IMG/VR virus record: IMGVR_UViG_2529292920_000008
Reading direction: 5' to 3' (one strand)
DNA from: a virus
Taxonomy: Duplodnaviria > Heunggongvirae > Uroviricota > Caudoviricetes
Length of the DNA stretch: 18,300 nucleotides
Part shown: piece by piece, positions 221 to 13,934 of the stretch
Layout: each line of letters opens with the position of its first letter
Numbering within the stretch: position 1 is the stretch's first letter
Notes under the pieces: model-generated
What the model was told of the DNA's origin: nothing
The model's database searches: none
Seen by the model: only the letters and a program-made list of their open reading frames with translations
Made by a program: the position numbers and the translations under genes

Positions 221-493
221 TCATCTTGCTGTCAGTTGTTTGGATTTCCGGTAGCCTGCCGCGTAAAGAGCTACGTTCGGAAGACAAGTTGAGCCTTCAT
301 ATTTTCTGGTCAACGTTGTCAGTGTTATTACTTCTGCTCTCATTGCTGGTTTGCGCTTGCATTGCAAGACCACTCGAGAGGGGGTTGGTCTGTGTAGCTT
401 GTCGGAGCTAATCGCCTCCTGACTTTGCAGGTTTGCGCGACGAGCTCTACGACGAGAAGCTGAGGTGCCTTTAAATTCTGTTTTTCTGGACAT
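221..493 (-). CDS. N: N-type transcription antitermination protein (P22 gene 24-like C-terminus)
   Basis: 90-aa product starting MSRKTEFKGTSASRRRARRANLQ (arginine-rich motif near the N-terminus) and ending ...VALYAAGYRKSKQLTAR, which matches the C-terminus of P22 N as I recall it. GGGAGG Shine-Dalgarno before ATG 493. Sits leftward of the immunity region with a nut-like site upstream. The ORF-track start at 577 is an upstream extension. Confidence 0.7.
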   Translation of the reverse strand: MSRKTEFKGTSASRRRARRANLQSQEAISSDKLHRPTPSRVVLQCKRKPAMRAEVITLTTLTRKYEGSTCLPNVALYAAGYRKSKQLTAR

Positions 494-591
494 AGATTCC
501 TCCCGAATAAACTTTGGTGATGCAATCTCGAAGCTCCTCCTGAGACGGTTGCTTCGGCATTGCATCCCACAGCTCATGTGGTTGGGTGATC

Positions 592-638
592 TGGCTTTTC
601 AGCCACGTAGTCGAGAGTTCGACGTTGTTTAAAGAGCC
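592..638 (-). promoter_or_regulatory. nutL candidate: boxA-like GCTCTTTAAACAA, small hairpin, boxB-like hairpin with GAAA loop
   Basis: On the leftward transcript: GGCUCUUUAAACAA (plus 625-638), hairpin GUCGA-ACUC-UCGAC (plus 610-623), then UGGCU-GAAA-AGCCA (plus 592-605). The same three-part layout recurs downstream of cro. Confidence 0.55.
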
Positions 639-659
639 TGCCAGTCTGTTCCGTTTGGC

Positions 660-892
660 TTCCAGCGTCCTGCTGACGGTTAAATAGTACGATATGTACT
701 TTATTGGGTTAATACTATTTGTTCTAAAATAGGGTGATTTTTTATAACACTTTGTATTTAATAGTGTTGTTTTTTAGCGTGGGTGTATCGCCTCGGCGAT
801 GTAAGGAGAGATCAGAATTGCGTGGTTTAGTGAGTTGTATCTATTTATTTTTCAATAAATACATTTGGTTATGTGTCTTTAGGTGGGGGCGT
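660..892. promoter_or_regulatory. oL/pL candidate region (left operators and leftward early promoter)
   Basis: AT-rich intergenic DNA between the terminator after the DinD-like gene and nutL. Contains near-palindromes AGTACGATATGTACT (680-694) and AACACT-N11-AGTGTT (749-771) that share a TAC-N5-GTA core with the cI/cro intergenic region. Exact operators and -10/-35 not resolved. Confidence 0.35.
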
Positions 893-923
893 GAGGCAAA
901 GAAAACCCGGCGCTGAGGCCGGG
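893..923 (-). terminator. intrinsic terminator on the minus strand, 3' of the DinD-like gene
   Basis: 6-bp GC stem CCCGGC/GCCGGG (906-911 with 918-923), 6-nt loop, followed on the minus strand by UUUUCUUUG. Lies 9 nt past the stop codon at 932-934. Confidence 0.6.
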
Positions 924-931
924 GTATGCAT

Positions 932-1774
932 TTATGGTTTTTTTTGGTCGTGCTTTGCTAGGGCTTTATGAGTTTTCTTAATGCTGCTTCTAACTTTCTG
1001 AATTTTTTCTTGGGAAAGTTTTATGTTTTCAGGGGCTGTTCCAGTGTTAGAAATCATTACATTGCGAACAGATCTCCCTACGGTCTCAGCAGCATTCTCT
1101 AGTTGAGACTGTCCCTTCAGGTTCTGGTTTCTGATTCTTGCTTCTGTCTGTGTAATTCTGAATATATTGGCCGCGAGCTCTTCGCTTCCCATGAAGTCAA
1201 GCATCGTTCCATCTTTTTTAGTTAGGCCTTTTCGAGCTTTCAACTGTGAGAGATTCATATTGTACATCCCACGGTAGCCCGCATTTTGAAATAGACCATA
1301 GTCGACTACTCCGTGTTTATGGGCTACATGACTGAGAGTTTTCTCTCTAGATGTAATCTCGCCACGCAAATAAACTCGATTAACTGCGTCATGGTTATGA
1401 TATGTAGTGTGTATTTCTGCTGCGAGCCCAGCAAAATAAGCTTGTGCATTTGCAACTTTTTGATTGCTGATGTCACCATTCATTACAATCAGATAACAAG
1501 CGAAACGAGTTAATTTAAAGTCATTTTTCGCATTTTCTGAAGGCATCTGGATGAAGTTATCGTATACAGGGATATCGAGGCTCACACATACAGATGTAGC
1601 TTTGTTAATGGCTTTCAATATCTGATCCATGCCATTATATCCAAGCATCATCGCTAAATCAGATGCAAACCAATAGGTAACACCGTTTTCTCTAGCGAAA
1701 TCATCAAATGTTAACTGTGATGTGTCATCGAAAACAGTAATTTGCCTACTCATATCACACCCGAACTTACTCAT
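932..1774 (-). CDS. DinD-like (DNA-damage-inducible protein D family) / Bro-N-like protein; accessory gene in the rexAB slot of the immunity region
   Basis: 280-aa ORF. N-terminal ...VTYWFASDLAMMLGYNG... resembles the Bro-N/KilA-N DNA-binding motif. I recall overall resemblance to DinD-family proteins, but this is memory, not alignment. AT-rich compared with neighbours. Same strand as cI, 80 nt downstream of it, with its own terminator. Confidence 0.6.
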   Translation of the reverse strand: MSKFGCDMSRQITVFDDTSQLTFDDFARENGVTYWFASDLAMMLGYNGMDQILKAINKATSVCVSLDIPVYDNFIQMPSENAKNDFKLTRFACYLIVMNGDISNQKVANAQAYFAGLAAEIHTTYHNHDAVNRVYLRGEITSREKTLSHVAHKHGVVDYGLFQNAGYRGMYNMNLSQLKARKGLTKKDGTMLDFMGSEELAANIFRITQTEARIRNQNLKGQSQLENAAETVGRSVRNVMISNTGTAPENIKLSQEKIQKVRSSIKKTHKALAKHDQKKP

Positions 1775-1854
1775 CGATTTTCCCTTATATTAATATAATG
1801 TGGATAGTTTGTCGCCAACTCGCTAAAGTTATTCATTATGAGGTTTGCCATCCA

Positions 1855-2514
1855 TCACCCAAACGTCTCTTCAGGCCACTGACTAGCGATAACTTTCCCC
1901 ACAACGGAACAACTCTCATTGCATGGGATCATTGGGTATTGTGGATTTAGTGGCTGTAGAAACACCTGACCGCTATCCCTGATCAGTTTCTTGAAGGTAA
2001 ATTCATCACCACCAAGTCTGGCTATGCAGAAATCGCCGGGCTCAACAGCTTGCTCTGGGTCAACCAGAATTAACATCCCGTCAGGAAAACTAGGTTTGGA
2101 ACCTGTTGGGGCGGTCATTGAGTTACCTTCAACCTCAAGCCAGAATGCAGAGTCACTGGCTTTTTTGGTTGTGCTTACCAATCTCTCCGCATCGCCTTTG
2201 GTAAAGGTTCTGAGTTCTGGAGAGAACATCCCAGCCTGAACATGAGAAAAAACAGGGTACTCATATTGTTTTTTAACTGGGGCCGATGAGTATTCGCCAA
2301 CAGGTGAAAATGTCCCGTCGTGGTTGAATGATATGTTATCAATACCAAGGTATTTAAACACCACACCAATATCACTAAGAGATGGATGACGAGATCCGCG
2401 CAACCAGTGTCCAATCCCACCCTGCGTCATACCTAGCTCTTCGGCTAACTTCTCTTGAGTTATGCCGAGCTCTTTCATTCTGGATCTAGCCAGTTCATAC
2501 CATTTCATTTTCAT
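1855..2514 (-). CDS. cI: CI prophage repressor, hybrid: lambda-type C-terminal dimerisation/autocleavage domain with a non-lambda HTH N-terminal domain
   Basis: About 135 C-terminal residues ([26 protein letters not shown]...[12 protein letters not shown]) essentially identical to lambda CI as I recall it. N-terminal [37 protein letters not shown] is an XRE-type HTH unlike lambda. Start taken at ATG 2514 (the ORF-track start at 2676 is an upstream extension); diverges from cro. Confidence 0.9.
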
Positions 2515-2624
2515 GTCCTTATTATTACGCTCTGTATTGCAACCATCCATGCACAATGTGTATTTTTGCTTGCATTCAAAAAGTACATATTGTATTTTTT
2601 CTTCATGGTTACTATGGAGGGCAT
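2515..2624. promoter_or_regulatory. oR/pRM/pR candidate region between divergent cI and cro
   Basis: 110-bp AT-rich spacer between divergent repressor genes. Repeated TGTATT motifs and near-palindrome TACATATTGTA (2583-2593). Possible pR: TTGCAT (2570-2575), 17 bp, TATTTT. Operator boundaries not resolved. Confidence 0.5.
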
Positions 2625-2840
2625 ATGAGCAACCTACGAAAATATCGAGAGTCACTGAATATCTCTCAAACAACACTTGCTAAGGCAGTTGGATGCACAC
2701 AGGGAGCTATCGGACATTGGGAATCTGGTCGTCGCTTCCCAGACCTTAAAACATGCCGTGCTCTTGTTGCGTGTCTAAACAAGTTAGGCGCAAAAGTAAG
2801 TCTTGATGACGTGTTCCCGCCGGAGCACAAAGCCGCTTAA
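2625..2840 (+). CDS. cro: Cro-like repressor (XRE-family HTH)
   Basis: 71 aa from ATG 2625 with GGAGGG Shine-Dalgarno. HTH segment [21 protein letters not shown]. Divergent from cI across the operator region. Confidence 0.8.
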
Positions 2841-2850
2841 TAAGCGGAGC

Positions 2851-2896
2851 CGCTCTTTGTAACAACGGACATTCGTCCTACGTCGCTGAAAAGCGA
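2851..2896 (+). promoter_or_regulatory. nutR candidate: boxA CGCTCTTTGTAACAA, small hairpin, boxB-like hairpin with GAAA loop
   Basis: CGCTCTTT at 2851-2858, hairpin GGAC-ATTC-GTCC at 2867-2878, hairpin TCGCT-GAAA-AGCGA at 2883-2896. Same layout as the nutL candidate. Confidence 0.55.
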
Positions 2897-2981
2897 GCCC
2901 CAAGATATCTGACCAACTAAGGCCATATGCGTTTCCACGCATACCTTTCAACTAACTATTCACTATTGGAAATCTTAAGAA

Positions 2982-3278
2982 ATGGAACAAACAAGTTACA
3001 GCAAACTATCACAGCGTGACGTTGATCGCGCAGAAACAGATTTACTCATCAACCTGTCAACGCTTACCCAGCGTGGTCTGGCAAAGATGATTGGCTGTCA
3101 TGAATCGAAGATAAGCAGAACGGACTGGCGGTTTATTGCTTCGGTCTTGTGTGCTTTCGGAATGGCATCAGACATCAGTCCAATTAGCAGGGCTTTTAAG
3201 TATGCGCTTGATGGAATCACAAAGAAAAAACGCCCGGCGGCAACCGAGCGTTCTGAACAAATCCAGATGGAGTTCTGA
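2982..3278 (+). CDS. cII: CII transcriptional activator (lambda-type C-terminus)
   Basis: 98 aa; C-terminal KKRPAATERSEQIQMEF identical to lambda CII as recalled; N-terminal part diverged. Sits between cro and O. Confidence 0.85.
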   Translation: MEQTSYSKLSQRDVDRAETDLLINLSTLTQRGLAKMIGCHESKISRTDWRFIASVLCAFGMASDISPISRAFKYALDGITKKKRPAATERSEQIQMEF

Positions 3279-3310
3279 GGTCATTACTGGATCTATCAAC
3301 AGGAGTCATT

Positions 3311-4210
3311 ATGACAAATACAGCAAAAATACTCAACTTCGGCAGAGGTAACTTTGCCGGACAGGAGCGTAATGTGGCAGATCTCGATGATGGTTACGCC
3401 AGACTATCAAATATGCTGCTTGAGGCTTATTCAGGCGCAGATCTGACCAAGCGACAGTTTAAAGTGCTGCTTGCCATTCTGCGTAAAACCTATGGGTGGA
3501 ATAAACCAATGGACAGAATCACCGATTCTCAACTTAGCGAGATTACAAAGTTACCCGTCAAACGGTGCAATGAAGCCAAGTTAGAACTCGTCAGAATGAA
3601 TATTATCAAGCAGCAAGGCGGCATGTTTGGACCAAATAAAAACATCTCAGAATGGTGTATCCCTCAAAACGAGGGAAAATCCCCTAAAACGAGGGATAAA
3701 ACATCCCTCAAATTGGGGGATTGCTATCCCTCAAAACAGGGGGACACAAAAGACACTATTACAAAAGAAAAAAGAAAAGATTATTCGTCCGAGAATTCTG
3801 GCGAATCCTCTGACCAGCCAGAAAACGATCTTTCTGTGGTTAAACCGGATGCTGCAATTCAGAGCGGCAGCAAGTGGGGAACAGCAGAAGACCTGACCGC
3901 CGCAGAGTGGATGTTTGACATGGTGAAGACCATCGCGCCATCAGCCAGAAAACCGAATTTTGCTGGGTGGGCTAACGATATCCGCCTGATGCGTGAACGT
4001 GACGGACGTAACCACCGCGATATGTGTGTGCTTTTCCGCTGGGCCTGCCAGGACAACTTCTGGTCCGGTAACGTGCTGAGTCCGGCCAAACTCCGCGACA
4101 AGTGGACCCAGCTCGAAATCAACCGTAACAAGCAACAGGCAGGCGTGACAGCCAGCAAACCAAAACTCGACCTGACAAACACTGACTGGATTTACGGGGT
4201 GGATTTATGA
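3311..4210 (+). CDS. O: replication initiator protein O (lambda type)
   Basis: 299 aa, near-identical over its length to lambda O as recalled (MTNTAKILNFGRGNFAGQERNVADLDDGYARL...). Contains the ori iterons internally. Confidence 0.95.
   Translation: MTNTAKILNFGRGNFAGQERNVADLDDGYARLSNMLLEAYSGADLTKRQFKVLLAILRKTYGWNKPMDRITDSQLSEITKLPVKRCNEAKLELVRMNIIKQQGGMFGPNKNISEWCIPQNEGKSPKTRDKTSLKLGDCYPSKQGDTKDTITKEKRKDYSSENSGESSDQPENDLSVVKPDAAIQSGSKWGTAEDLTAAEWMFDMVKTIAPSARKPNFAGWANDIRLMRERDGRNHRDMCVLFRWACQDNFWSGNVLSPAKLRDKWTQLEINRNKQQAGVTASKPKLDLTNTDWIYGVDL
3655..3790. repeat. ori-lambda-type replication origin: four iterons plus AT-rich tract inside gene O
   Basis: Four ~18-20 bp inverted-repeat iterons (ATCCCTCAAAACGAGGGA, AATCCCCTAAAACGAGGGA, ATCCCTCAAATTGGGGGA, ATCCCTCAAAACAGGGGGA) followed by an A-rich tract ACAAAAGAAAAAAGAAAAGATTATT. 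Confidence 0.85.
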
Positions 4211-4908
4211 AAAACATCGCCGCACAGATGGTTAACTTTGACCGTGAGCAGATGCGTCGGATCGCCAACAACATGCCGGAACAGTACGACGAAAAGCCGC
4301 AGGTACAACAGGTAGCGCAGATCATCAACGGTGTGTTCAGCCAGTTACTGGCAACTTTCCCGGCGAGCCTGGCTAACCGTGACCAGAACGAACTGAACGA
4401 AATCCGCCGCCAGTGGGTTCTGGCTTTCCGGGAAAACGGGATCACCACAATGGAACAGGTTAACGCAGGAATGCGCGTAGCCCGTCGGCAGAATCGACCA
4501 TTTCTGCCATCACCCGGGCAGTTTGTTGCATGGTGCCGGGAAGAAGCATCCGTTATCGCCGGACTGCCAAACGTCAGCGAGCTGGTTGATATGGTTTACG
4601 AGTATTGCCGGAAGCGAGGCCTGTATCCGGATGCGGAGTCTTATCCGTGGAAATCAAACGCGCACTACTGGCTGGTTACCAACCTGTATCAGAACATGCG
4701 GGCCAATGCGCTTACTGATGCGGAATTACGCCGTAAGGCCGCAGATGAGCTTGTCCATATGACTGCGAGAATTAACCGTGGTGAGTCGATCCCTGAACCA
4801 GTAAAACAACTTCCTGTCATGGGCGGTAGACCTCTAAATCGTGCACAGGCTCTGGCGAAGATCGCAGAACTCAAAGCTAAGTTCGGACTGAAAGGAGCAA
4901 GTGTATGA
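4207..4908 (+). CDS. P: replication protein P (DnaB helicase loader, lambda type)
   Basis: 233 aa, near-identical to lambda P as recalled. Overlaps the O stop and the ren start (ATGA overlaps). Confidence 0.95.
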   Translation: MKNIAAQMVNFDREQMRRIANNMPEQYDEKPQVQQVAQIINGVFSQLLATFPASLANRDQNELNEIRRQWVLAFRENGITTMEQVNAGMRVARRQNRPFLPSPGQFVAWCREEASVIAGLPNVSELVDMVYEYCRKRGLYPDAESYPWKSNAHYWLVTNLYQNMRANALTDAELRRKAADELVHMTARINRGESIPEPVKQLPVMGGRPLNRAQALAKIAELKAKFGLKGASV

Positions 4909-5195
4909 CGGGCAAAGAGGCAATTATTCATTACCTGGGGACGCATAATAGCTTCTGTGCGCCGGACGTTGCCGCGCTAACAGGCGCAACAGTAACCAGC
5001 ATAAATCAGGCCGCGGCTAAAATGGCACGGGCAGGTCTTCTGGTTATCGAAGGTAAGGTCTGGCGAACGGTGTATTACCGGTTTGCTACCAAGGAAGAAC
5101 GGGAAGGAAAGATGAGCACGAACCTAATTTTTAAGGAGTGTCGCCAGAGTGCCGCGATGAAACGGGTATTGGCGGTATATGGAGTTAAAAGATGA
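4905..5195 (+). CDS. ren: Ren protein (lambda type)
   Basis: 96 aa, near-identical to lambda Ren as recalled (MTGKEAIIHYLGTHNSFCAPDVAALTG...). Immediately follows P. Confidence 0.9.
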   Translation: MTGKEAIIHYLGTHNSFCAPDVAALTGATVTSINQAAAKMARAGLLVIEGKVWRTVYYRFATKEEREGKMSTNLIFKECRQSAAMKRVLAVYGVKR

Positions 5196-5220
5196 CCATC
5201 TACATCACTGAGCTAATAAC

Positions 5221-5253
5221 AGGCCTGCTGGTAATCGCAGGCCTTTTTATTTG
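5221..5253 (+). terminator. intrinsic terminator (tR2-like) downstream of ren
   Basis: Perfect 8-bp stem AGGCCTGC/GCAGGCCT with 8-nt loop, followed by TTTTTATTTG. Confidence 0.7.
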
Positions 5254-5267
5254 GGGGAGAGTAAATC

Positions 5268-5594
5268 GTGGCTGACTGGCAAATACCAATCATCATTCTT
5301 GCCGGAGCTTCGCTGGTTGCTGGCTTTATCCTGCTGAAGAAGCATAAAGACCGTGATCAAAAAGTCGAAGTTCTCTATGGGTATCCGGCGAACAGCACAA
5401 CATGGCTGACTATTTACCACTACCGAAAATCAGGCCGTTGGGTATTCGAATGGGATGATCTGTTTGCTGAAAAGCGACCAAAGTCATGGGGAGACATCAG
5501 CGAATGCATGATGTTTGAAGAAAGAAAATCCGGCGCAACCCGAGAAGAGTTTAACGAAGCGTGGAGGCGATTAAGTGAGAGGGGGTATCAATGA
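5268..5594 (+). CDS. hypothetical single-pass membrane protein (N-terminal TM helix plus ~85-aa soluble domain)
   Basis: 108-aa ORF from GTG 5268 with GGGGGAGAG Shine-Dalgarno. N-terminal hydrophobic segment IPIIILAGASLVAGFILL followed by a charged KKHKDRDQK stretch. No family recognised. Lies where lambda has the ren-ninB junction. Confidence 0.55.
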   Translation: MADWQIPIIILAGASLVAGFILLKKHKDRDQKVEVLYGYPANSTTWLTIYHYRKSGRWVFEWDDLFAEKRPKSWGDISECMMFEERKSGATREEFNEAWRRLSERGYQ

Positions 5595-5616
5595 GCAGAA
5601 TTAAGTCGAGGTAACA

Positions 5617-6063
5617 ATGAAGCAAATATACATGCTTCGCAACGAAGCAATCAGAAACAACGCCATAGACGCAATACTCTCACTTCCGATCGACGACAAG
5701 TCACCTCACGAAGTCCACATTAAAGAACCCAGGCGGAGCAATCCTCAAAACCGCCTTATGTGGGCGTTATTGCAGGACGTATCACGTCAGGTGCTTTGGC
5801 ATGGAAAGAGACTTGCGCCGGAGGACTGGAAAGATCTGTTCACTGCCCTGTGGCTTAAGACCAAAAAACTGGAGCAACGAAGTGCGCCTGGTATCGACGG
5901 TGGCGTTGTCATGCTTGGCGTGCGTACCAGCAAAATGCGAAAGGCCAGCATGACTGAGCTTATCGAAATCATGTTCTGGTTCGGCTCAGAGCGCAACGTG
6001 CGGTGGAGTGATGACTCCCGGCGAGAGTATGAATGGTCACAACGAAAAGGTAGGGCTGCATGA
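5617..6063 (+). CDS. ninB: NinB-like recombination protein (Orf family)
   Basis: 148 aa with recalled similarity to lambda NinB (NRSxxQNRxxWAxLxDVSRQVxWHG, GxRxSKMR, KWSDD motifs). Confidence 0.8.
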   Translation: MKQIYMLRNEAIRNNAIDAILSLPIDDKSPHEVHIKEPRRSNPQNRLMWALLQDVSRQVLWHGKRLAPEDWKDLFTALWLKTKKLEQRSAPGIDGGVVMLGVRTSKMRKASMTELIEIMFWFGSERNVRWSDDSRREYEWSQRKGRAA

Positions 6064-6587
6064 CTATCAAATCAAATACGCCAGCACACGACAAGGACTG
6101 CTGGCAAACGCCGCTTTGGCTTTTTGATGCACTGGATATTGAGTTTGGATTCTGGCTGGATTCGGCAGCGAGCGACAAAAATGCTCTGTGCGCTCACTGG
6201 CTAACTGAGGCTGACGACGCGCTAAATTCTGAGTGGGTAAGCCACGGTGCAATCTGGAATAACCCACCGTACAGCAATATCAGGCCGTGGGTGGAAAAAG
6301 CCGCTGAGCAGTGTATACAACAACGACAGACGGTAGTGATGCTTGTGCCAGAGGATATGTCAGTCGGATGGTTCAGCAAGGCTCTGGAGAGTGTCGACGA
6401 AGTTCGTATTATCACTGATGGACGGATTAATTTTGTCGAACCATCGACAGGACTGGAGAAGAAGGGAAACAGCAAAGGTTCCATGCTGCTGATTTGGCGA
6501 CCGTTCATCAGTTCTCGACGGATGTTTACTACTGTATCCAAAGCGGCATTGATGGCGATCGGGCAGGGCGTCAGGAGGGCAGCATGA
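6060..6587 (+). CDS. phage DNA N6-adenine methyltransferase (Dam-like, small phage MTase family)
   Basis: 175 aa with DCWQTP...[11 protein letters not shown]...LDSAAS near the N-terminus, catalytic NPPY motif ([10 protein letters not shown]), and [13 protein letters not shown] near the C-terminus. ATGA overlaps with ninB and ninE. Confidence 0.8.
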
Positions 6588-6766
6588 GACGACAGCGACG
6601 AAGTTTCACCGACATCATCTGCGAAAACTGCAAATACCTTCCAACGAAACGCTACAGAAATAAACGCAAGCCAATCCCAAAAGAATCTGACGTAAAAACC
6701 TTCAACTACACGGCTCACCTGTGGGATATCCGGTGGCTAAGACATTGTGCGAGGAAAACAAGGTGA
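6584..6766 (+). CDS. ninE: NinE-like protein
   Basis: 60 aa [60 protein letters not shown], near-identical to lambda NinE as recalled. AGGAGGG Shine-Dalgarno before ATG 6584. Confidence 0.85.
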
Positions 6767-6933
6767 TTGACCAAAATCGAAGTTACGAACAAGAAAGCGT
6801 CGAGCGAGCTTTAACGTGCGCTAACTGCGGTCAGAAGCTGCATGTGCTGGAAGTTCACGTGTGTGAGCACTGTTGCGCAGAACTTATGAGCGATCCGAAT
6901 AGCTCAATGTACGAGGAAGAAGACGATGAATGA
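6763..6933 (+). CDS. ninF: NinF-like protein (Cys-rich)
   Basis: [56 protein letters not shown], near-identical to lambda NinF as recalled. Start assigned to GTG 6763 overlapping the ninE stop; start uncertain. Confidence 0.7.
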
Positions 6934-7648
6934 GTTAATAAATGGCAATGCCATAAAAATGACAAGCATTGAAATCGCTGAGTTGGTTGGTAAGCGTCAT
7001 GACAATGTGAAACGTACCATCGAAACGCTGGCTAAAAATGGTGTTATCCGGCTTCCTCAAATTGAGGATTGTGGAAGAATCAATGGGTTAGGCTTAAATC
7101 AAAGTTTTTGTGTGTATGTATTCGAAGGCGAACAAGGAAAGCGAGACAGTATTGTCGTTGTAGCCCAGTTGTCGCCGGAATTCACGGCTCGCCTTGTTGA
7201 CCGTTGGCGAGAGCTTGAAGAAGCTGCGGTTAATATCCCAAAAACGCTACCAGAAGCGTTGCGCCTTGCTGCTGACCTTGCTGAGCAGAAAATGCAACTG
7301 GAAAACCAGCTAGCAATTGCCGCACCTAAAGTTGAGTTTGCCGATCGCGTTGGCGAGGCCAGCGGAATTTTGATTGGAAACTTTGCAAAGGTTGTTGGAA
7401 TTGGTCCAAACAAACTGTTTGCGTGGATGCGCGATCACAAAATCCTTATTGCTTCAGGTTCCCGGCGCAATGTGCCAATGCAGGAATATATGGATCGCGG
7501 CTATTTCACAGTGAAAGAAACAGCGGTCAACACAAATCACGGAATACAGATATCGTTCACCACAAAAATCACCGGGTGTGGTCAACAGTGGCTGACCAGA
7601 AAGCTGCTCGATAACGGAATGCTGAAAGTAACAGGGGAGGCTGCTTAA
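6926..7648 (+). CDS. phage antirepressor-type protein (Rha-like N-terminal region plus AntB/KilAC-like C-terminal domain)
   Basis: 240 aa. N-terminal MTSIEIAELVGKRHDNVKRTIETL resembles the Rha regulatory motif; C-terminal half resembles Ant-type antirepressor C-domains. Family assignment from memory. Confidence 0.7.
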   Translation: MNELINGNAIKMTSIEIAELVGKRHDNVKRTIETLAKNGVIRLPQIEDCGRINGLGLNQSFCVYVFEGEQGKRDSIVVVAQLSPEFTARLVDRWRELEEAAVNIPKTLPEALRLAADLAEQKMQLENQLAIAAPKVEFADRVGEASGILIGNFAKVVGIGPNKLFAWMRDHKILIASGSRRNVPMQEYMDRGYFTVKETAVNTNHGIQISFTTKITGCGQQWLTRKLLDNGMLKVTGEAA

Positions 7649-7938
7649 TGGCTAACCTACGCAAAGAAGCTCGCGGCAGAGAATGCCAGGTACGTATTTA
7701 CGGCGTATGCAATGGCAACCCTGAAACTACAGTTCTGGCACATTACCGGATGGCTGGAATTTGCGGAACGGGAATGAAGCCTGACGACCTGATCGGCGCA
7801 TGGGCTTGTAGCGCGTGTCACGATGAAATCGACCGACGCACCCATAACCTCGACAACAAAGACGCCAGACTTTACCACCTCGAAGGCGTGATCAGGACGC
7901 AGGCGATACTGCTGAAGGAGGGGAAGATTAAGCCATGA
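7648..7938 (+). CDS. YbcO-like protein (DUF1364, Cys/His-rich putative nuclease of the nin region)
   Basis: 96 aa with ARGRECQVRIYGVCNGNPETTVLAHYR and WACSACHDEIDRRTH motifs, matching recalled DLP12 YbcO. Immediately precedes rusA, as in DLP12. Confidence 0.75.
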   Translation: MANLRKEARGRECQVRIYGVCNGNPETTVLAHYRMAGICGTGMKPDDLIGAWACSACHDEIDRRTHNLDNKDARLYHLEGVIRTQAILLKEGKIKP

Positions 7939-8297
7939 ACGAATATCAGTTTGTGCTTCCATACCCGCCGTCGGTGAATACCTACTGGCGAAGACGGGGA
8001 GGCCAATACTACATCAGCGATAAAGGCCAGAAATACCGAAAAGACGTTCAGCAAATCATTCGCCAACTCAAGTTAGACATTTTCACCAAATCACGACTCC
8101 GTATCAAAGTCATCGCAGACGTTCCAGACTCCCGCCGCCGCGACCTCGACAACATCCTGAAAGGTTTACTCGACTCCCTTATCCACGCCGGATTTGCGGA
8201 AGACGACGAGCAATTCGATGACATTCGCGTAATTCGTGGTGTGAAAGTACCAGGCGGAAGGCTTGGAATAAAAATCACCGAACTGGAGAACACATGA
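7935..8297 (+). CDS. rusA: RusA-family Holliday junction resolvase
   Basis: 120 aa with LPYPPSVNTYW, RRRDLDN and GGRLGIKITE motifs typical of RusA. ATGA overlap with the YbcO-like gene. Confidence 0.9.
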   Translation: MNEYQFVLPYPPSVNTYWRRRGGQYYISDKGQKYRKDVQQIIRQLKLDIFTKSRLRIKVIADVPDSRRRDLDNILKGLLDSLIHAGFAEDDEQFDDIRVIRGVKVPGGRLGIKITELENT

Positions 8298-8428
8298 ACA
8301 AAGCATTCGAACGATATATGCGCCAGCGTTATGGCAATCGCTACGATCTTACCCGCGATGCTTACGGCTTCTACTGTCGTGAGGTTGTGAAACGAATGTT
8401 TGAAGTGTGGTGTCATTGCAAAGGATAG
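8294..8428 (+). CDS. small hypothetical protein (44 aa), translationally coupled to rusA, in the position of DLP12 ylcG
   Basis: ATG 8294 overlaps the rusA stop (ATGA). Product MNKAFERYMRQRYGNRYDLTRDAYGFYCREVVKRMFEVWCHCKG; stop TAG at 8426-8428. Below the ORF-track length cutoff. Confidence 0.45.
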   Translation: MNKAFERYMRQRYGNRYDLTRDAYGFYCREVVKRMFEVWCHCKG

Positions 8429-8439
8429 AGGGGAAGACG

Positions 8440-9063
8440 ATGAGACTCGAAAGCGTAGCTAAATTTCATTCGCCAAAAAGCCCGATGATGAGCGACTCAC
8501 CACGGGCCACGGCTTCTGACTCTCTTTCCGGTACTGATGTGATGGCTGCTATGGGGATGGCGCAATCACAAGCCGGATTCGGAATGGCTGCATTCTGCGG
8601 TAAGCACGAACTCAGCCAGAACGACAAACAAAAGGCTATCAACTATCTGATGCAATTTGCACACAAGGTATCGGGGAAATACCGTGGCGTGGCAAAGCTT
8701 GAAGGAAATACTAAGGCAAAGGTACTGCAAGTGCTCGCAACATTCGCTTATGCGGATTATTGCCGTAGTGCCGCGACGCCGGGCGCAAGATGCAGAGATT
8801 GCCACGGTACAGGCCGTGCGGTTGATATAGCCAAAACAGAGCAGTGGGGGATAGTTGCTGAGAAAGAGTGCGGAAGATGTAAAGGCGTCGGTTATTCAAG
8901 AATGCCAGCAAGCGCCGCATATCGCGCTGTGACGATGCTAATCCCAAACCTTACCCAACCCACCTGGTCACGCACTGTTAAGCCGCTGTATGACGCTCTG
9001 GTTGTGCAATGCCACAAGGAAGAGTCAATCGCAGACAACATTTTGAATGCGATCACACGTTAG
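8440..9063 (+). CDS. Q: late gene antiterminator Q (lambda type)
   Basis: 207 aa from MRLESVAKFHSPKSPMMSDSPRATASD..., near-identical to lambda Q as recalled. The ORF-track start at 8407 is an upstream extension. Confidence 0.95.
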   Translation: MRLESVAKFHSPKSPMMSDSPRATASDSLSGTDVMAAMGMAQSQAGFGMAAFCGKHELSQNDKQKAINYLMQFAHKVSGKYRGVAKLEGNTKAKVLQVLATFAYADYCRSAATPGARCRDCHGTGRAVDIAKTEQWGIVAEKECGRCKGVGYSRMPASAAYRAVTMLIPNLTQPTWSRTVKPLYDALVVQCHKEESIADNILNAITR

Positions 9064-9099
9064 CGCCATGATTGCCACGGATGGCAACATATTAACGGC

Positions 9100-9160
9100 A
9101 TAATATTGACTTTTTGAATAACTTTGGGGAAACTTGACACCAATAATGGGCGTTTTTTAC
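9100..9160 (+). promoter_or_regulatory. late promoter PR' with qut-like region (lambda-like)
   Basis: ATTGACTTTTTGAATAACTTTGGGGAAACTTGACACCAATAATGGGCG closely parallels the lambda PR'/qut sequence as recalled. -35 TTGACT at 9107-9112, 17-bp spacer, -10-like GAAACT. Confidence 0.5.
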
Positions 9161-9300
9161 ATGTCATTGATGAGTCTCAATAACCTGCCGCCGAGTAGTT
9201 TTTATGCTCTGAATTGTATTTGTGTAGTAAACATGCTGACTGCAATGTAATAGAGTTTTTTTAGCCTGTAACCTCTTGACGGCATTGAATTGCTTTTGTT

Positions 9301-10059
9301 ATGAGTTGTAAGCCAATGTTATCATCTTGTATTGGGGTGGTTATGAAGGATGGTGCACTGCTCAGGAGTTCTTCACTTTTTATTGCCTACATGGGATGCC
9401 TTGGATGGGGGAGTGCTTATTTCTATGGATGGGGTACTTCTTTTTACTACGGCTTCCCATGGTGGATTGTAGGTGCAGGTGTTGATGATGTTGCCAGAAG
9501 TTTATTTTTTGCAGTTATCGTCATTGCTATATTTCTTATCGGTTGGGGTATTGGTGTTGTATTCTTTTTCGCAGTGAAAAGAAAACATTCTATGCAAGAG
9601 CTAAATGTATTTCGCCTTTATTTTGCTGTGGAATTATTGTTTGTGCCGGCAATTATTGAGTTTTCTATATTGAGACAGAAGATTCAGGTACCTCTTTTGC
9701 TACTGTCAGCAGCGATTGCGCTGGCGGTTACAATTTCGATAAGATCTTATGGGCGATTTTTATCGGTATCATGCTTCTATGATAAGCCATTTATAAAAAA
9801 ACATTTTTTTGAGATTGTGATGATTGCTTTTGTGGCATATTTTGGGCTTTTTTCATTTCTGACAGGATATTACAAACCACAGTTTAAGAAAGAATATGAA
9901 ATGATTAATTATAATGATGGTTGGTATTATGTTCTTGCTCGTTATGATAATTGTCTGGTTTTGTCTACTTCTTTCAATGCAGGTAGTAAAAGGTTTGTCA
10001 TTTATCAATCAGCACAAGATAAGAATCTTCAGGTTGATATTGTAAGGACCAGAATTTAA
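9301..10059 (+). CDS. hypothetical multi-pass inner-membrane protein; moron between PR' and the lysis cassette
   Basis: 252-aa ORF (alternative start ATG 9343 behind GGGGTGG) with about 5 hydrophobic helices (e.g. LFFAVIVIAIFLIGWGIGVVFFFAV) and a ~50-aa hydrophilic C-terminal tail. AT-rich relative to flanking genes. No family recognised. Confidence 0.6.
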   Translation: MSCKPMLSSCIGVVMKDGALLRSSSLFIAYMGCLGWGSAYFYGWGTSFYYGFPWWIVGAGVDDVARSLFFAVIVIAIFLIGWGIGVVFFFAVKRKHSMQELNVFRLYFAVELLFVPAIIEFSILRQKIQVPLLLLSAAIALAVTISIRSYGRFLSVSCFYDKPFIKKHFFEIVMIAFVAYFGLFSFLTGYYKPQFKKEYEMINYNDGWYYVLARYDNCLVLSTSFNAGSKRFVIYQSAQDKNLQVDIVRTRI

Positions 10060-10489
10060 TTGGCTGCATAAATAATATTTTAAGTTGCAAGTTGGCTATT
10101 CGTAGGAATAGAACCTTAGGCATGCTGAATGCGTTTTCTGAACATTGTTTTATAAACTGTGTCTGCTTGCTGTTGTGATCCTGCTTTTAGTGATGGTGAT
10201 GATGGATTTCACCAGCAGGATAATGTTGGTACTGACTGATGGCGCTCTGGTCTGCGGCATTGTGGTATTGCTGTGGCCGATGATGAAAGAACAGAATGAA
10301 TAATCCTTGACTTTTTTGTTTACTGTTTATTAAAAAATCAACCGCATGGTGAATCCTCCTTGGAGGGGCTAAATGATCGAGTTTTAAGGGCACGTAGCGA
10401 GTTCTGTTTGATCATTGCAGAACTTAGCGGGAGGCGCCATGCGTACATCACTAATGTTATTTCCTTCTATCATTTTCCTTGTGAGTTCT

Positions 10490-10516
10490 GGCTGCGCATG
10501 GCGCGGCCTTTTTTTT
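10490..10516 (+). terminator. intrinsic terminator, plus strand (tR'-like candidate)
   Basis: 8-bp stem GGCTGCGC/GCGCGGCC (one G-U pair), 3-nt loop, followed by eight T residues. Confidence 0.6.
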
Positions 10517-10692
10517 ATGACCTGCCACTGGCAGATGGTCATCCTGTGATTTGATTCCGGTTCCGGCTTTTTAACTCTGTTCCTGTACACGGGAGAAATT
10601 CTATGTCGATTAATCGTTATGATATTGGTTACAAGAAGTACCACGTATTGTGTTGAGATAGAAAGCATGGTGCCAGAGGTAAATGCAGCAGC

Positions 10693-10745
10693 ATAATAAA
10701 AAAGAGCCAGCGCAGAAGAGAACGGGTAAAAGAGTCTGCGCTGGC
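10693..10745 (-). terminator. intrinsic terminator, minus strand
   Basis: Perfect 11-bp inverted repeat GCCAGCGCAGA / TCTGCGCTGGC (10706-10716 with 10735-10745), 18-nt loop, followed on the minus strand by CUCUUUUUUAUUAU. Confidence 0.45.
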
Positions 10746-10861
10746 GTGGGGATATTCCCCGTGGAGAAATGATATGTAACACACATCGGGAACCTTTCTA
10801 TATAAACATTATCATTATTGTCAATCATAACAGTCAGGTATTATGACGTTTATGCATCAGG

Positions 10862-10893
10862 GCCATCAGGAATTAACTGGTGGCTTTTTATTG
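10862..10893 (+). terminator. intrinsic terminator, plus strand, just upstream of the holin gene
   Basis: 8-bp stem GCCATCAG/CTGGTGGC (one G-U pair), 7-nt loop, then TTTTTATTG. Confidence 0.5.
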
Positions 10894-10924
10894 TTGTCAG
10901 CTTCCGGATAACGGGAGACGGAGT

Positions 10925-11140
10925 ATGTATCAGATGGAAAAAATCACAACAGGTGTGTCATACACCACGTCAGCGGTGGGGACGGGATACTGGTTACTGC
11001 AGCTGCTGGACAAAGTCTCTCCGTCCCAGTGGGTGGCAATAGGTGTGCTGGGAAGTCTGCTGTTTGGCCTGCTGACGTATCTGACAAATCTTTATTTCAA
11101 GATTAAAGAAGATAAGCGTAAGGCTGCGAGAGGTGAATAA
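10925..11140 (+). CDS. class II holin / pinholin (phage 21 S-like) with dual-start motif
   Basis: 71 aa [71 protein letters not shown]: two TM segments, Met1/Met4 dual start, charged C-terminus; resembles S21 as recalled. GGGAGACGGAG Shine-Dalgarno. Confidence 0.85.
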
Positions 11141-11637
11141 TGTCGCCGTCATTACGCAAGGCTGTTGCAGCTGCTATTGGTGGTGGGGCTGTTGCCATAG
11201 CGTCTGTGCTCATCACTGGTCCAGGTGGTAACGATGGTCTGGAAGGTGTCAGCTACATACCATACAAAGATATCGTTGGCGTATGGACTGTATGTCACGG
11301 ACACACCGGAAAAGACATCATGCCCGGTAAAACGTATACCGAAGCAGAATGCAAAGCCCTCCTGAATAAAGACCTTGCCACGGTCGCCAGACAAATTAAC
11401 CCGTACATCAACGTCGATATACCGGAAACAACGCGCGGCGCTCTTTACTCGTTCGTTTACAACGTGGGCGCTGGCAATTTCAGAACATCGACGCTTCTTC
11501 GCAAAATAAACCAGGGTGATATCAAAGGCGCATGTGACCAGCTACGTCGCTGGACATACGCTGGCGGTAAGCAATGGAAAGGGCTGATGACCCGTCGTGA
11601 TATTGAGCGTGAAGTCTGTTTGTGGGGGCAGCAATGA
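11140..11637 (+). CDS. SAR endolysin (lysozyme with N-terminal signal-anchor-release domain, R21-like)
   Basis: 165 aa with a Gly/Ala-rich weakly hydrophobic N-terminus ([20 protein letters not shown]) followed by a lysozyme-like domain. Directly follows the pinholin, a known functional pairing. Confidence 0.85.
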
Positions 11638-12101
11638 GCAGGGTAACCGCGATTATCTCCGCTCTGGTTATTTGCATCATCCTCTGCCTGTCATGGGCTG
11701 TTAATCATTACCGTGATAACGCCATCGCCTACAAAGAGCAGCGTGATAAAAAAGTCAGTGAGCTGAAGCAGGCGACCGCCACCATTACTGACATGCAGCA
11801 ACGCCAGCGTGCTGCTGATGTACTCGATGCTAAATACACGAAGGAGTTAGCCAATGCGAAAGCTGAAAATGATGCTCTTCGGCGTAAGCTTGATAATGGT
11901 GGTCGGGTGCTCGTCAAAGGAAAATGCCCTGTGCCAGCCTCAGCCAAAACCTCCAGCTCCTCCGGCATGGGCAATGATGCCACCGTCGAACTCTCTTCAG
12001 TTGCTGGACGAAACGTTCTCGGTATCCGGGACGGAATTATCCGTGACCAAACAGCACTGAGAACGCTTCAGGAGTACATCAGGACGCAATGCCTGAAATA
12101 A
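11634..12101 (+). CDS. Rz: Rz i-spanin (N-terminus lambda-like, C-terminal half diverged)
   Basis: [31 protein letters not shown]... matches lambda Rz over roughly the first 100 residues as recalled; the C-terminus differs. ATGA overlap with the endolysin stop. Confidence 0.9.
11854..12060 (+). CDS. Rz1: Rz1 o-spanin lipoprotein, embedded in the +1 frame of Rz
   Basis: [21 protein letters not shown]...: signal peptide with lipobox-like VVGC and a proline-rich mature region ([12 protein letters not shown]). Embedded arrangement typical of Rz/Rz1. Confidence 0.8.
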
Positions 12102-12133
12102 TTTTTTTGCAAATCACAAAGTCAATTTAATGA

Positions 12134-12156
12134 GCCTCGCGATGCGGGGCTTTTTT
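12134..12156 (+). terminator. intrinsic terminator after the lysis cassette
   Basis: 7-bp stem GCCTCGC/GCGGGGC (one G-U pair), 3-nt loop, followed by TTTTTT. Confidence 0.6.
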
Positions 12157-12299
12157 ATGTCCGCAGTAAACGCGCATCTCACGCGCATATTAACGAGAGC
12201 CTTTCAGTAAGCGAGCCTGAGAAATGCCGTTATAGGTGGCGACCTCTCTCGGGCGGCTTTTCTGTGAGACAGGCTCACTTTCTAAAAGGTAAAGACGCT

Positions 12300-12824
12300 A
12301 TGAATAATCATTCAGTTATTCCAGCCTTCGACTTCCGAGAAATGGTGCAAGCCAAAAACGGAGAGGTCGTTACCACATCCAGAAAAATTGCCAAGTACTT
12401 CGGCAAGCGACACGGTGATGTTCTCAGGAAAATCGAGCAGGTTAAGGCTGATTGCTCGCGTGAGTTTAGCCAACGCAATTTTGCGTCGGCTGATTATATC
12501 GATGAGCAGGGCAAGGTTCGCCCGATGTACAGCCTGACGAAAGATGGCTGGATCATGGTTGTGATGGGGTTCACCGGGAAAGCTGCTGCGGCAATCAAGG
12601 AGAGCTATATCGCAGCATTCAACTGGATGGCAGAGCAACTGAGCCGCCGCATGGCAATTGGCGAAGAAATGCAGCACCGCTACGCCATCAAAGAAACACG
12701 CTCAAAGCTGAAAGGTACGATCGGCAGTCGGTTAATGAACGAACGGAAGAAAGAGAAGCGTGTCCTGGCTGTCGAGCATGAATACATTTTGCAGGTGACA
12801 CAGCCTGAACTGCTGATTAATTGA
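12300..12824 (+). CDS. Rha-family phage regulatory protein
   Basis: N-terminal VVTTSRKIAKYFGKRHGDVLRKIEQV matches the Rha N-terminal motif. Start taken at ATG 12300 (the ORF track gives GTG 12264). Sits between the lysis cassette and cos. Confidence 0.7.
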   Translation: MNNHSVIPAFDFREMVQAKNGEVVTTSRKIAKYFGKRHGDVLRKIEQVKADCSREFSQRNFASADYIDEQGKVRPMYSLTKDGWIMVVMGFTGKAAAAIKESYIAAFNWMAEQLSRRMAIGEEMQHRYAIKETRSKLKGTIGSRLMNERKKEKRVLAVEHEYILQVTQPELLIN

Positions 12825-13220
12825 AGATGTCATTACAAAGCCTATCTACGGGTGGGCTTGATAATGGCTTATACCCTGCACGGGATAACTTAACTGATAT
12901 CCCTTTTAACGGATAAAGGTATTCAAGCCTGACACATCATGCGCTGTATCGTCGCCGTATTCCCGCATTAACCATGATCGTAGCCCGACGGGGAATTCCT
13001 TCTGCGTGAGTGTGCGGGAATAATCAAAAACGATGCACACCGGGTTTTTACCGCGTTTATGATTCGTGGGTTTGTCCCTCATGCTCGCCAGTCCTGTGCG
13101 GGGGTGGAAGAAACAGGACGCTCACACAGATTCTTGTAGGTACGATGCTATTCCTTTCTGGATTATCCCGATGCCATTCATGCAGGGCGCTGTATCAGAC
13201 GTTCGTCATGGCTGTCAGGC

Positions 13221-13270
13221 TGACGGGTCCTCCTGGTGGGGTGGCCTGCCACGGGGCGGGAGCGTCGCGG
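13221..13270. other. cos site candidate (cosQ/cosN region), lambda-like
   Basis: TGACGGGTCCTCCTGGTGGGGTGGCCTGCCACGGGGCGGGAGCGTCGCGG aligns with the lambda right-end/left-end junction as recalled (ACGGGTCCT ... ACGGGGCGG ... CGCGG). Lies ~175 bp upstream of the small terminase gene, as in lambda. Confidence 0.55.
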
Positions 13271-13439
13271 AAAAAGGCTAGTTTTTGAAATTTCATTCGT
13301 CATCACCACTGCTGTAATTGATTGATATTGCAGTAGTTTTATTTTTGCGGTGTCGATTTTGATTGTTTTTTGTTCATCACTAACACCGTTTGCCTAAAGT
13401 TGTTCGCAAGATGCATGTTTAAAACATTCTGGAGCGGGT

Positions 13440-13934
13440 ATGGATCGAGAGTTAAAAAATCTGACGCTGAATATCAGTCAACTGGCGGCACTGTCAGGTG
13501 TACATCGCCAGACTGCTGCGGCAAGGCTGCAAAATCTACCCGTTGCAGGGGGGCATGAAAGCAACCTCAAGCTTTATCGGGTGGTTGATATTGTGTCGGC
13601 ATTTCTGGCATTGCCACCGCCGGTTGCAGAAGGCGAAATGGACGCGCATGAGCGCAAAGCCTGGTATCAGTCTGAACGTGAGCGTCTTAAGTTCGAACAG
13701 GAAACGGCACAACTCATTCCGGCCAGTGATGTCAGACGGGAGTTTGCCATCTGGGCAAAAGCGGTCGTGCAGGTGCTGGAGACATTACCGGATATTCTGG
13801 AACGTGACTGCGGTCTGCAGCCTGCCGCTGTGAGCCGTGTTCAGTCCATTATTGATGATCTGCGCGATCAGATAGCCCTGCGGGTGACTGAAGCAGGTGC
13901 GGATGATGAGGAGGAATTACAGCAGGAGGAGTAA
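13440..13934 (+). CDS. terminase small subunit (Nu1-like)
   Basis: 164 aa with an N-terminal HTH-like LNISQLAALSGVHRQTAAARLQ and an acidic C-terminus. Immediately precedes and overlaps the large terminase start. Confidence 0.8.
   Translation: MDRELKNLTLNISQLAALSGVHRQTAAARLQNLPVAGGHESNLKLYRVVDIVSAFLALPPPVAEGEMDAHERKAWYQSERERLKFEQETAQLIPASDVRREFAIWAKAVVQVLETLPDILERDCGLQPAAVSRVQSIIDDLRDQIALRVTEAGADDEEELQQEE

Follow-up and report, generated by a model that had tools for sequence, protein, structure and literature searches.

How a prophage repressor comes to carry the cleavage and oligomerisation domain of phage lambda on a DNA-binding domain of another kind, and which immunity it would then confer, is the question raised by positions 1855 to 2840 of a DNA stretch of 18,300 nucleotides from a virus of the class Caudoviricetes (IMG/VR record IMGVR_UViG_2529292920_000008), the whole of which is referred to here as the window. 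An earlier note, made from the letters alone, had described this region as a hybrid immunity module, composed of the repressor gene cI, the right operator region (OR) and a matching cro. A listing of open reading frames (ORFs) and Pfam searches over the 18.3-kb window found all three where they had been placed, and the window proved 99.9% identical to a prophage of enteropathogenic Escherichia coli (EPEC) O127:H6 E2348/69. Together with the left operator region (OL) at 685-759, the stretch 1855-2840 is very probably the lysis-lysogeny switch of this lambdoid prophage, and of the VT2-Sakai (Sp5) immunity type, a reading to which a probability of about 90% is assigned. What the earlier note had observed was confirmed as a whole in its coordinates, alignments and motif counts, and its interpretation is supported with three caveats, namely that the type is a known one, that the hybrid has no direction and that its specificity is a prediction.

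The 986-bp block of cI, OR and cro is 97.9-98.8% identical at the DNA level to 62 phage records. These include VT2-Sakai (Sp5), the Shiga toxin 1 (Stx1)-converting phage and Stx2 II (Sato et al.), with records AP005153 and AP005154, respectively, Nil2, 1717, 2851 and YYZ-2008, in addition to the PA series and the non-Stx phage 2B8. The N-terminal domain of CI is 100% identical to that of the Stx1-converting phage and 98.8% identical to that of VT2-Sakai, and the features that define the VT2-Sakai/Sp5 type (CI N-terminal domain, Cro and six operators) are all present in the window. Like the window, the VT2-Sakai type has the same junction with lambda, and its CI C-terminal domain and Cro are 100% identical to those of the window. 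The two differ further out, since the VT2-Sakai type carries HK022-type O/P and orf22/NYN-type genes downstream of cI, whereas the window carries lambda-type O/P/ren and a DinD-like cargo gene.

The module is already known: it was described in VT2-Sakai over 20 years ago and has been catalogued since 1999-2003. As cited in PMC10742460, Fattah et al. 2000 described the VT2-Sakai CI as highly homologous to lambda CI at its C-terminus and poorly so at its N-terminus. This CI is placed in 'Clade I' with 61% overall identity to lambda CI (PMC8951638), and the CI 'Clade I' of Fagerlund et al. 2022 corresponds to the VT2-Sakai-type region. The N-terminal domain and operators of the window are those of a described type, then, which is one half of what the earlier note had named as its refutation, while the chimeric junction relative to lambda is genuine. 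Chimerism of this kind belongs to the whole type and not to the window alone. As far as the window itself is concerned, it amounts to a correct rediscovery of textbook lambdoid mosaicism, ordinary for lambdoid phages.

Repressor domains and their junction

The cI gene lies at 1855-2514 on the minus strand and encodes 219 amino acids when read from ATG 2514 (MKMKW...). Its product contains an HTH_3 domain (residues 10-57, E 1.9e-10) and a Peptidase_S24 domain (PF00717, E 1.1e-28), and also matches the phrog_4 transcriptional repressor family (E 9e-61). The C-terminal domain (residues 84-219 plus stop; 1855-2265, minus strand) corresponds to lambda CI 101-236 and is identical to it at 135 of 136 positions (E about 4e-93), in agreement with the claim that the last 135 or so residues match lambda nearly throughout; the sole amino-acid change is L112, the equivalent of lambda W129. 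At the DNA level, window 1854-2265 is 93.2% identical to positions 37226-37637 of lambda (NC_001416) and is one of three blocks matched to that genome by blastn, the other two being 3217-5261 and 806-927.

This domain is 99% identical to solved lambda structures and contains the cleavage site, the catalytic residues and the dimerisation and cooperativity surfaces. All that lambda-type self-cleavage requires is retained, as Ala94-Gly95, Ser132 and Lys175 align with lambda A111-G112, S149 and K192. The protein shows the features of LexA/lambda-CI-type (Peptidase S24) repressors, that is, an HTH_3 domain, a C-terminal Peptidase_S24 domain, a Ser-Lys dyad and an Ala-Gly site in the linker. Regarding the single substitution, the L112 codon (2179-2181) sits in the cleavage-site region; Leu112 is found in every VT2-Sakai-type CI seen, all of which have a 100% identical C-terminal domain, and the Trp at this position is conserved in the CI proteins of SPN9CC, S107, VT2phi_272 and mEpX1. 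L112 might tune the induction threshold.

The transition to the N-terminal domain is sharp and falls between codons 83 and 84, where codon 83 is CAA against GAG in lambda and the next ten codons are identical. Upstream of it, residues 1-83 (N-terminal DNA-binding domain plus linker; 2266-2514, minus strand), with the recognition helix TQGGIGHW, are 23% identical to the lambda N-terminal domain globally and 30% identical over the 47-residue core of the helix-turn-helix (HTH). Both domains belong to Pfam HTH_3, and on alignment residues 1-83 are best regarded as a distant, fold-level homologue of the lambda domain. The first Gln of the recognition helix is conserved between the two, the residue aligned to lambda Ser45 is Gly in the window CI, and the 17-residue N-terminal extension of the lambda domain is absent from it. 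The statement that the N-terminal HTH and Cro are unrelated to those of lambda consequently has to be divided: it applies to Cro, which belongs to another Pfam family, but not to the N-terminal domain of CI, which is a distant homologue.

Alignments with the repressors of lambda, 434, P22, 21 and HK022 returned the C-terminal match to lambda and only fold-level similarity for the N-terminal domain. P22 and HK022 gave no match to this domain at E<1, the N-terminal structures of 434 and P22 were not matched by CI at E<=1, and imm21 showed 32% identity over 50 amino acids (E 1e-4). The N-terminal domain is of none of the P22, HK022, 434 and 21 immunity types, the similarity being that of the HTH fold. 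The imm-lambda group is defined by its CI N-terminal domain, its operators and a PF09048 Cro, and none of the three occurs in the window. The domain-level mosaic is real, with a sharp junction at codons 83/84 and an N-terminal domain, a Cro and operators unlike those of lambda.

The true start of cI is uncertain, ATG 2508 being equally plausible as ATG 2514. Either fits the alignment with the CI of Salmonella phage SPN9CC, which begins at the residue aligned with M3 of the window CI, as well as an AAGGA Shine-Dalgarno-like sequence. This start codon is annotated inconsistently between records: RefSeq gives a 231-residue cI from 2550, whose first codon falls within OR2 and lies upstream of the likely PRM, and the original VT2-Sakai record has a cI truncated to 170 amino acids and no operator annotation.

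Cro, operators and the proposed switch

A control region of 110 bp separates cI from the divergent cro (2625-2840, plus strand), which encodes a protein of 71 amino acids of the all-helical HTH_3 type (E 4e-12), whereas lambda Cro is of family PF09048. The Cro sequence is 100% identical to those of VT2-Sakai and the Stx1 phage and 69% identical to that of ST64T. It is also related to the repressor, with 35% identity to the CI N-terminal domain (E 9e-13) and a recognition helix, TQGAIGHW, that is nearly the same as TQGGIGHW in CI. Since CI and Cro share the recognition helix, Cro matches the repressor, as in phage 434, and the 'matching cro' of the earlier note is borne out.

For the operators, TAC-N5-GTA near-palindromes had been proposed in place of the 17-bp operators of lambda. 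The exact motif is found six times in the 18.3 kb, where 1.7 copies would be expected, and half of the six lie in the two control regions. When degenerate positions are allowed, a motif search of both intergenic regions yields six 17-bp pseudo-palindromes, three in OL (685-759) and three in OR (2523-2597). The motif is present, therefore, but the proposed contrast in architecture is not, as the sites are 17-bp pseudo-palindromes arranged as in lambda.

On the right side, the putative OR3 (2523-2539, TATTACGCTCTGTATTG) and OR2 (2549-2565, ATGCACAATGTGTATTT) were recovered by position weight matrix (PWM) and consensus scans; the former differs at one position from the published VT2-Sakai OR3 and coincides with a putative operator of AP005153, and the latter is identical to the published OR2. 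The putative OR1 (2581-2597, AAGTACATATTGTATTT) has zero mismatches to the consensus, is identical to its published counterpart and overlaps the presumed -10 region of PR. On the left side, the putative OL1 (685-701, TAGTACGATATGTACTT), found by motif count, consensus and PWM scans, is identical to the published OL1, whereas OL2 (710-726, TAATACTATTTGTTCTA; PWM scan) and OL3 (743-759, TATAACACTTTGTATTT; consensus and PWM scans) each show two differences from theirs. Three OL and three OR sites have been reported in the Sakai phage (PMC4587872), and compared with the VT2-Sakai list (PMC10742460, Table S1) three of the window sites are identical and three differ by 1-2 bases, which fall at degenerate positions. 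All six coincide with the operators annotated as putative in the Stx1-converting phage AP005153, from which they differ only at the degenerate positions 1, 3, 7, 8 and 15, never at A2, A5 or C6.

The putative half-site can be written (A/T)A-x-T-A-C-A-x, with A5 and C6 in every one of the 12 half-sites and A2 in 11 of them. Lambda operators have the same length and share A2, A5 and C6, but position 4 is T in the window, not C, so that a half-site AAxTACA stands against TATCACC in lambda and the full sites are AAxTACA-N-TGTAxTT rather than members of the TATCACCGCCGGTGATA family; with the window motif as PWM, no site was found in lambda OR. Operator centres are 32 and 26 bp apart, compared with 24 and 23 bp in lambda. 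In ST64T, the six best matrix matches of a 2.6-kb locus fall into two groups of three, one between cro and c2 and the other between c2 and gene 24, and they show the spacing pattern of the window (OR1-OR2 32-34 bp, OR2-OR3 26 bp, OL1-OL2 25 bp). The OR of SPN9CC has the ATAC-N7-GTAT core seen in the window.

According to the mechanism proposed from these similarities, CI dimers would bind the six 17-bp pseudo-palindromes through the HTH_3 N-terminal domain, recognising the half-site (A/T)A-x-TACA-x, and would thereby repress PR and PL and, by analogy with lambda, autoregulate PRM. Cro, with nearly the same recognition helix, would occupy these operators too when the phage grows lytically. The C-terminal domain would provide lambda-type dimerisation and dimer-dimer cooperativity, acting pairwise on the operators. 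RecA*-stimulated self-cleavage at Ala94-Gly95, carried out by Ser132 and Lys175 and leading to SOS induction, is expected from the 135/136 identity to the lambda domain. The N-terminal domain, the operators and Cro would make up an exchangeable specificity cassette, and the C-terminal domain would be inherited separately, joined at the linker before YEYP.

Some of this arrangement has reportedly been built in the laboratory, as engineered hybrids from the Hochschild and Ptashne laboratories are said to have fused the 434 DNA-binding domain to the lambda C-terminal domain, with specificity following the N-terminal domain, and cooperativity and cleavage following the C-terminal one. In both, a foreign HTH domain meets the lambda C-terminal domain at the linker, but the fusion in the window is natural, has spread widely and brings a Cro and operators of its own. 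The module is a clean example of immunity specificity on the one hand, and induction and cooperativity on the other, being inherited as separate modules. It also governs the induction of many Shiga-toxin prophages, which makes its biochemistry medically relevant.

Several points weigh against this picture. The operator PWM was derived from the very sites that it then ranks as the top six in the 18.3 kb, which is circular, and the independent support for these operators comes from the published VT2-Sakai list and from ST64T/SPN9CC only. A sigma-70 and terminator scan of 560-3320 called none of PR, PRM and PL, and its three promoter-like matches are irrelevant and fewer than the 6.1 expected; the positions of the three promoters are those suggested by analogy and by the AP005153 annotation. 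In the literature, VT2-Sakai-type operators are themselves labelled putative, and a search there found no footprinting or cleavage study of the VT2-Sakai-type module. What the comparisons show directly are the sequence identities, the junction, where the motifs lie and how the module is distributed, and from these the binding to DNA, the cooperativity, the cleavage, the location of the promoters and the immunity phenotype are inferred.

Evolution, distribution and immunity specificity

The specificity cassette (N-terminal domain, operators, Cro) has its closest heterologous relative in Salmonella phage L/ST64T. The two have in common the helix TQGAIGHW, the ATAC-N7-GTAT operator core and the spacing pattern of the operators, and both C2 and Cro of ST64T bear the same recognition helix as CI and Cro of the window. 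The cassettes are related, but the window does not belong to the phage L/ST64T type, as the N-terminal domain is only 55% identical to that of C2, Cro 69% and the C-terminal domain, P22-like in C2, 46%. In SPN9CC, a CI N-terminal domain with 52% identity to that of the window is combined with a lambda-family C-terminal domain 80% identical to it.

Across such pairs, the identities of N-terminal domain and Cro vary together (52% and 46% for the window and SPN9CC, 59% and 50% for lambda and VT2phi_272, 84% and 85% for S107 and mEpX1), whereas C-terminal domains group otherwise (99% for the window and lambda, 87% for SPN9CC and S107). This discordance indicates that the cassette of N-terminal domain, operators and Cro moves as a unit, independently of the C-terminal domain. 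The C-terminal module is always joined just before a Y(E/N)YP motif, which is YEYP in the window. The word 'hybrid' has to be used without a direction, since both domain combinations have deeper relatives and neither lambda nor the window phage is the hybrid.

A quite different history can be conceived, in which this prophage is a novel and recent chimera whose unrelated repressor took the C-terminal half of cI, and O-P-ren, from lambda itself. It would fit with the adjoining replication block, 98.5% identical to lambda, and with the identity to lambda over 1859-1938, where VT2-Sakai differs at four positions. However, dozens of Stx and non-Stx phages sequenced since 1999 have this junction together with this C-terminal allele (100% at the amino-acid level, L112 included), and 776 E. 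coli genomes contain the immunity block. Furthermore, the C-terminal domain of cI differs from that of lambda by 27 synonymous changes and one non-synonymous change (pS 0.30, dS 0.39, dN/dS 0.008), against a pS of 0.088 in O, 0.025 in P and 0.015 in ren. This distribution and synonymous divergence refute a recent chimera and leave it almost no probability. Its pS of 0.30, against 0.015-0.088 in ren, P and O, marks the lambda-like domain as an allele that is old and under strong constraint, not one borrowed lately from lambda.

As for the stretch 1859-1938, these 80 bp, the last 26 or so codons of cI, are identical to lambda, and the 295 bp that precede them contain 27 differences; at 1879, 1882, 1885 and 1936 the window departs from both VT2-Sakai and the Stx1 phage. 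The pattern suggests that a small further exchange took place, with its end exactly at the stop codon of cI, where the lambda homology ends.

Many lambdoid prophages of E. coli are defective, and RefSeq annotates a frameshifted pseudogene just left of OL. Under an alternative in keeping with this, the switch would be a decaying relic within a cryptic prophage, no longer working in its host. Yet each of cI, cro, cII, N, O, P and ren has an intact ORF, purifying selection on the C-terminal domain is strong (dN/dS 0.008), the key positions of the operators are preserved and the window runs on into intact Q, lysis, terminase and portal genes, all of which makes a relic improbable. The lysis-lysogeny switch of VT2-Sakai type remains the preferred reading.

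The distribution of the two kinds of repressor was assessed in 5426 complete E. coli genomes. The segment comprising the window N-terminal domain, OR and cro is found in 776 of them (about 14%), at 802 places, the lambda N-terminal domain plus cro in 620 genomes at 636 places, and the lambda-type C-terminal domain in 1211 genomes at 1435 places. The sum of the first two place counts, 1438, is close to 1435, which implies that nearly every such C-terminal domain is attached to one of the two N-terminal domains. By inclusion-exclusion, these figures suggest that about 185 genomes carry both immunity types.

By its sequence, the module should have VT2-Sakai-type specificity, unlike that of lambda. 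The opposite possibility is that it is cross-immune with lambda, with either CI recognising the operators of the other phage. Both operator sets consist of 17-bp sites with A2, A5 and C6 in the half-site, the initial Gln of the recognition helix is conserved, and Fattah et al. 2000 (Genes Genet Syst 75:223), as cited in PMC10742460, is said to describe VT2-Sakai and lambda as cross-immune. In gel shifts, the only functional data found, lambda CI does bind VT2-Sakai operators, at 3.7-6.4 uM, but in the same assay lambda OR1 and OL1 required 0.35 and 0.21 uM (PMC10742460). Binding to lambda OR1/OL1 is 10-25 times tighter, which speaks for a weak and against a cognate recognition of VT2-Sakai operators. 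In addition, identity between the N-terminal domains is only 23-30%, lambda Ser45 is replaced by Gly and half-site position 4 is T, not C, and the roughly 185 complete genomes with both immunity types are more easily explained by heteroimmunity. Cross-immunity is, on balance, distinctly unlikely, and a VT2-Sakai-type specificity separate from that of lambda is retained as the expectation.

Co-residence, which the genome counts suggest to be common, may nevertheless allow another kind of contact between the two systems. The C-terminal domain, which bears the dimer, tetramer and octamer contacts, is 99% identical to that of lambda CI, and for this reason it is conceivable, if rather doubtful, that the window CI and a lambda-immunity CI form mixed dimers or oligomers in a shared cell, with L112 perhaps tuning induction. 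If so, mixed dimers would draw subunits away from active homodimers or link operators of the two types, two prophages that are heteroimmune in name would become coupled in their stability and induction thresholds, and the old report of 'cross immunity' could perhaps be explained. A literature search for CI heterodimers between heteroimmune prophages found nothing relevant, and of the whole analysis only this possible cross-talk with lambda-immunity repressors in the same cell could lead to something new. E2348/69 itself (NC_011601) has two places for the C-terminal domain and one for the window N-terminal domain plus cro, which implies that the strain has a further cI-like gene whose C-terminal domain is of the lambda type.

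Genes flanking the switch

The overall layout is that of lambda, with three 17-bp operators per side, divergent cI and cro, a cI operon with cargo and terminator, the CII tail, O, P and ren. On its left, cI is followed by a 280-residue ORF, a terminator-like hairpin, a second control region and then N. The N antiterminator gene (221-493, minus strand; 90 amino acids, Pfam N_peptide PF25694, E 1e-31) would be transcribed from PL under the control of OL. The terminator-like hairpin detected by the terminator scan at 906-923 (minus strand) would close the cI operon, and it falls within the block 806-927, which is 90% identical to the lambda region downstream of rexB.

The rexAB genes themselves are missing from the window, and their position downstream of cI is taken by the 280-residue cargo gene (932-1774, minus strand), of the DinD-like/BRO-N kind and probably co-transcribed with cI. 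Its product matches NCBIfam DinD NF008573 (E 1.4e-58) with 198.6 bits, below the curated cut-off of 242 bits, and the PADLOC candidate defence family PDC-S13 (E 2e-86); its only Pfam match is Bro-N. E. coli DinD has been reported to inhibit RecA filaments, and a DinD-like gene that shares a transcript with a repressor cleavable through RecA might influence induction or serve as a defence moron; a literature search on DinD-like prophage genes found nothing relevant. This combination is rare, as at least 80% of window 600-3400, which covers the cargo gene and cI-cro, is found in only 10 of the 5426 genomes, and in other carriers the cargo slot is filled by NYN-domain, HicA/DUF1902 or other genes.

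To the right of cro, cII (2982-3278, plus strand; Phage_CII, E 2e-34) is a mosaic in its own right, for over its first 82 or so amino acids the protein is nearly that of HK022, and over the last 17 (KKRPAATERSEQIQMEF) it is identical to lambda CII. The lambda-type replication block (3217-5261, plus strand), which is 98.5% identical to lambda 38592-40636, comprises the 3' end of cII and the ORFs of O (3311-4210), P (4207-4908) and ren (4905-5195). At the protein level, identity to lambda reaches 299/299 for O, 229/233 for P and 94/96 for Ren, so that the lambda-like character attributed to the CII C-terminus, O, P and ren is upheld. The right junction to these genes lies in the 3' end of cII (3217-3318), where lambda, VT2-Sakai-type phages and the window are alike. 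A CII-like site with one mismatch at 2991-3004 (minus strand), at the start of cII, resembles lambda PRE only in position and strand, and the motif TTGC-N6-TTGC is not enriched (24 matches against 25 expected).

Beyond the replication block, window 5200-18300 is an ordinary lambdoid late-early region. RefSeq annotates there NinB, a DNA adenine methyltransferase, NinE/NinF, a KilAC antirepressor-like protein and RusA, followed by a Q-type antiterminator, holin/lysozyme/Rz, a Rha-family regulator, the large terminase subunit and the portal protein; this annotation includes no stx genes in the window.

Finally, candidate nut sites were recognised by eye and by motif counts on both sides of the switch. 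The candidate nutR (2852-2896, plus strand) consists of a boxA-like GCTCTTTGTAACAAC, a spacer hairpin and a boxB-like TCGCTGAAAAGCGA, and the candidate nutL (592-637, minus strand) of a boxA-like GCTCTTTAAACAAC, a spacer hairpin and a boxB-like TGGCTGAAAAGCCA. In both, a GCTCTTT..AACAAC boxA-like element is followed by the hairpin and then by the boxB-like (T[G/C]GC)TGAAAA(GC[C/G]A), with a compensatory change in the stem between the copies, and this organisation fits an N of the H-19B/933W/HK97 type (Pfam N_peptide). The sequence GCTGAAAAGC is present in three copies, against 0.03 expected, and the third, at 5466-5475 (plus strand), falls inside the ORF 5268-5594.

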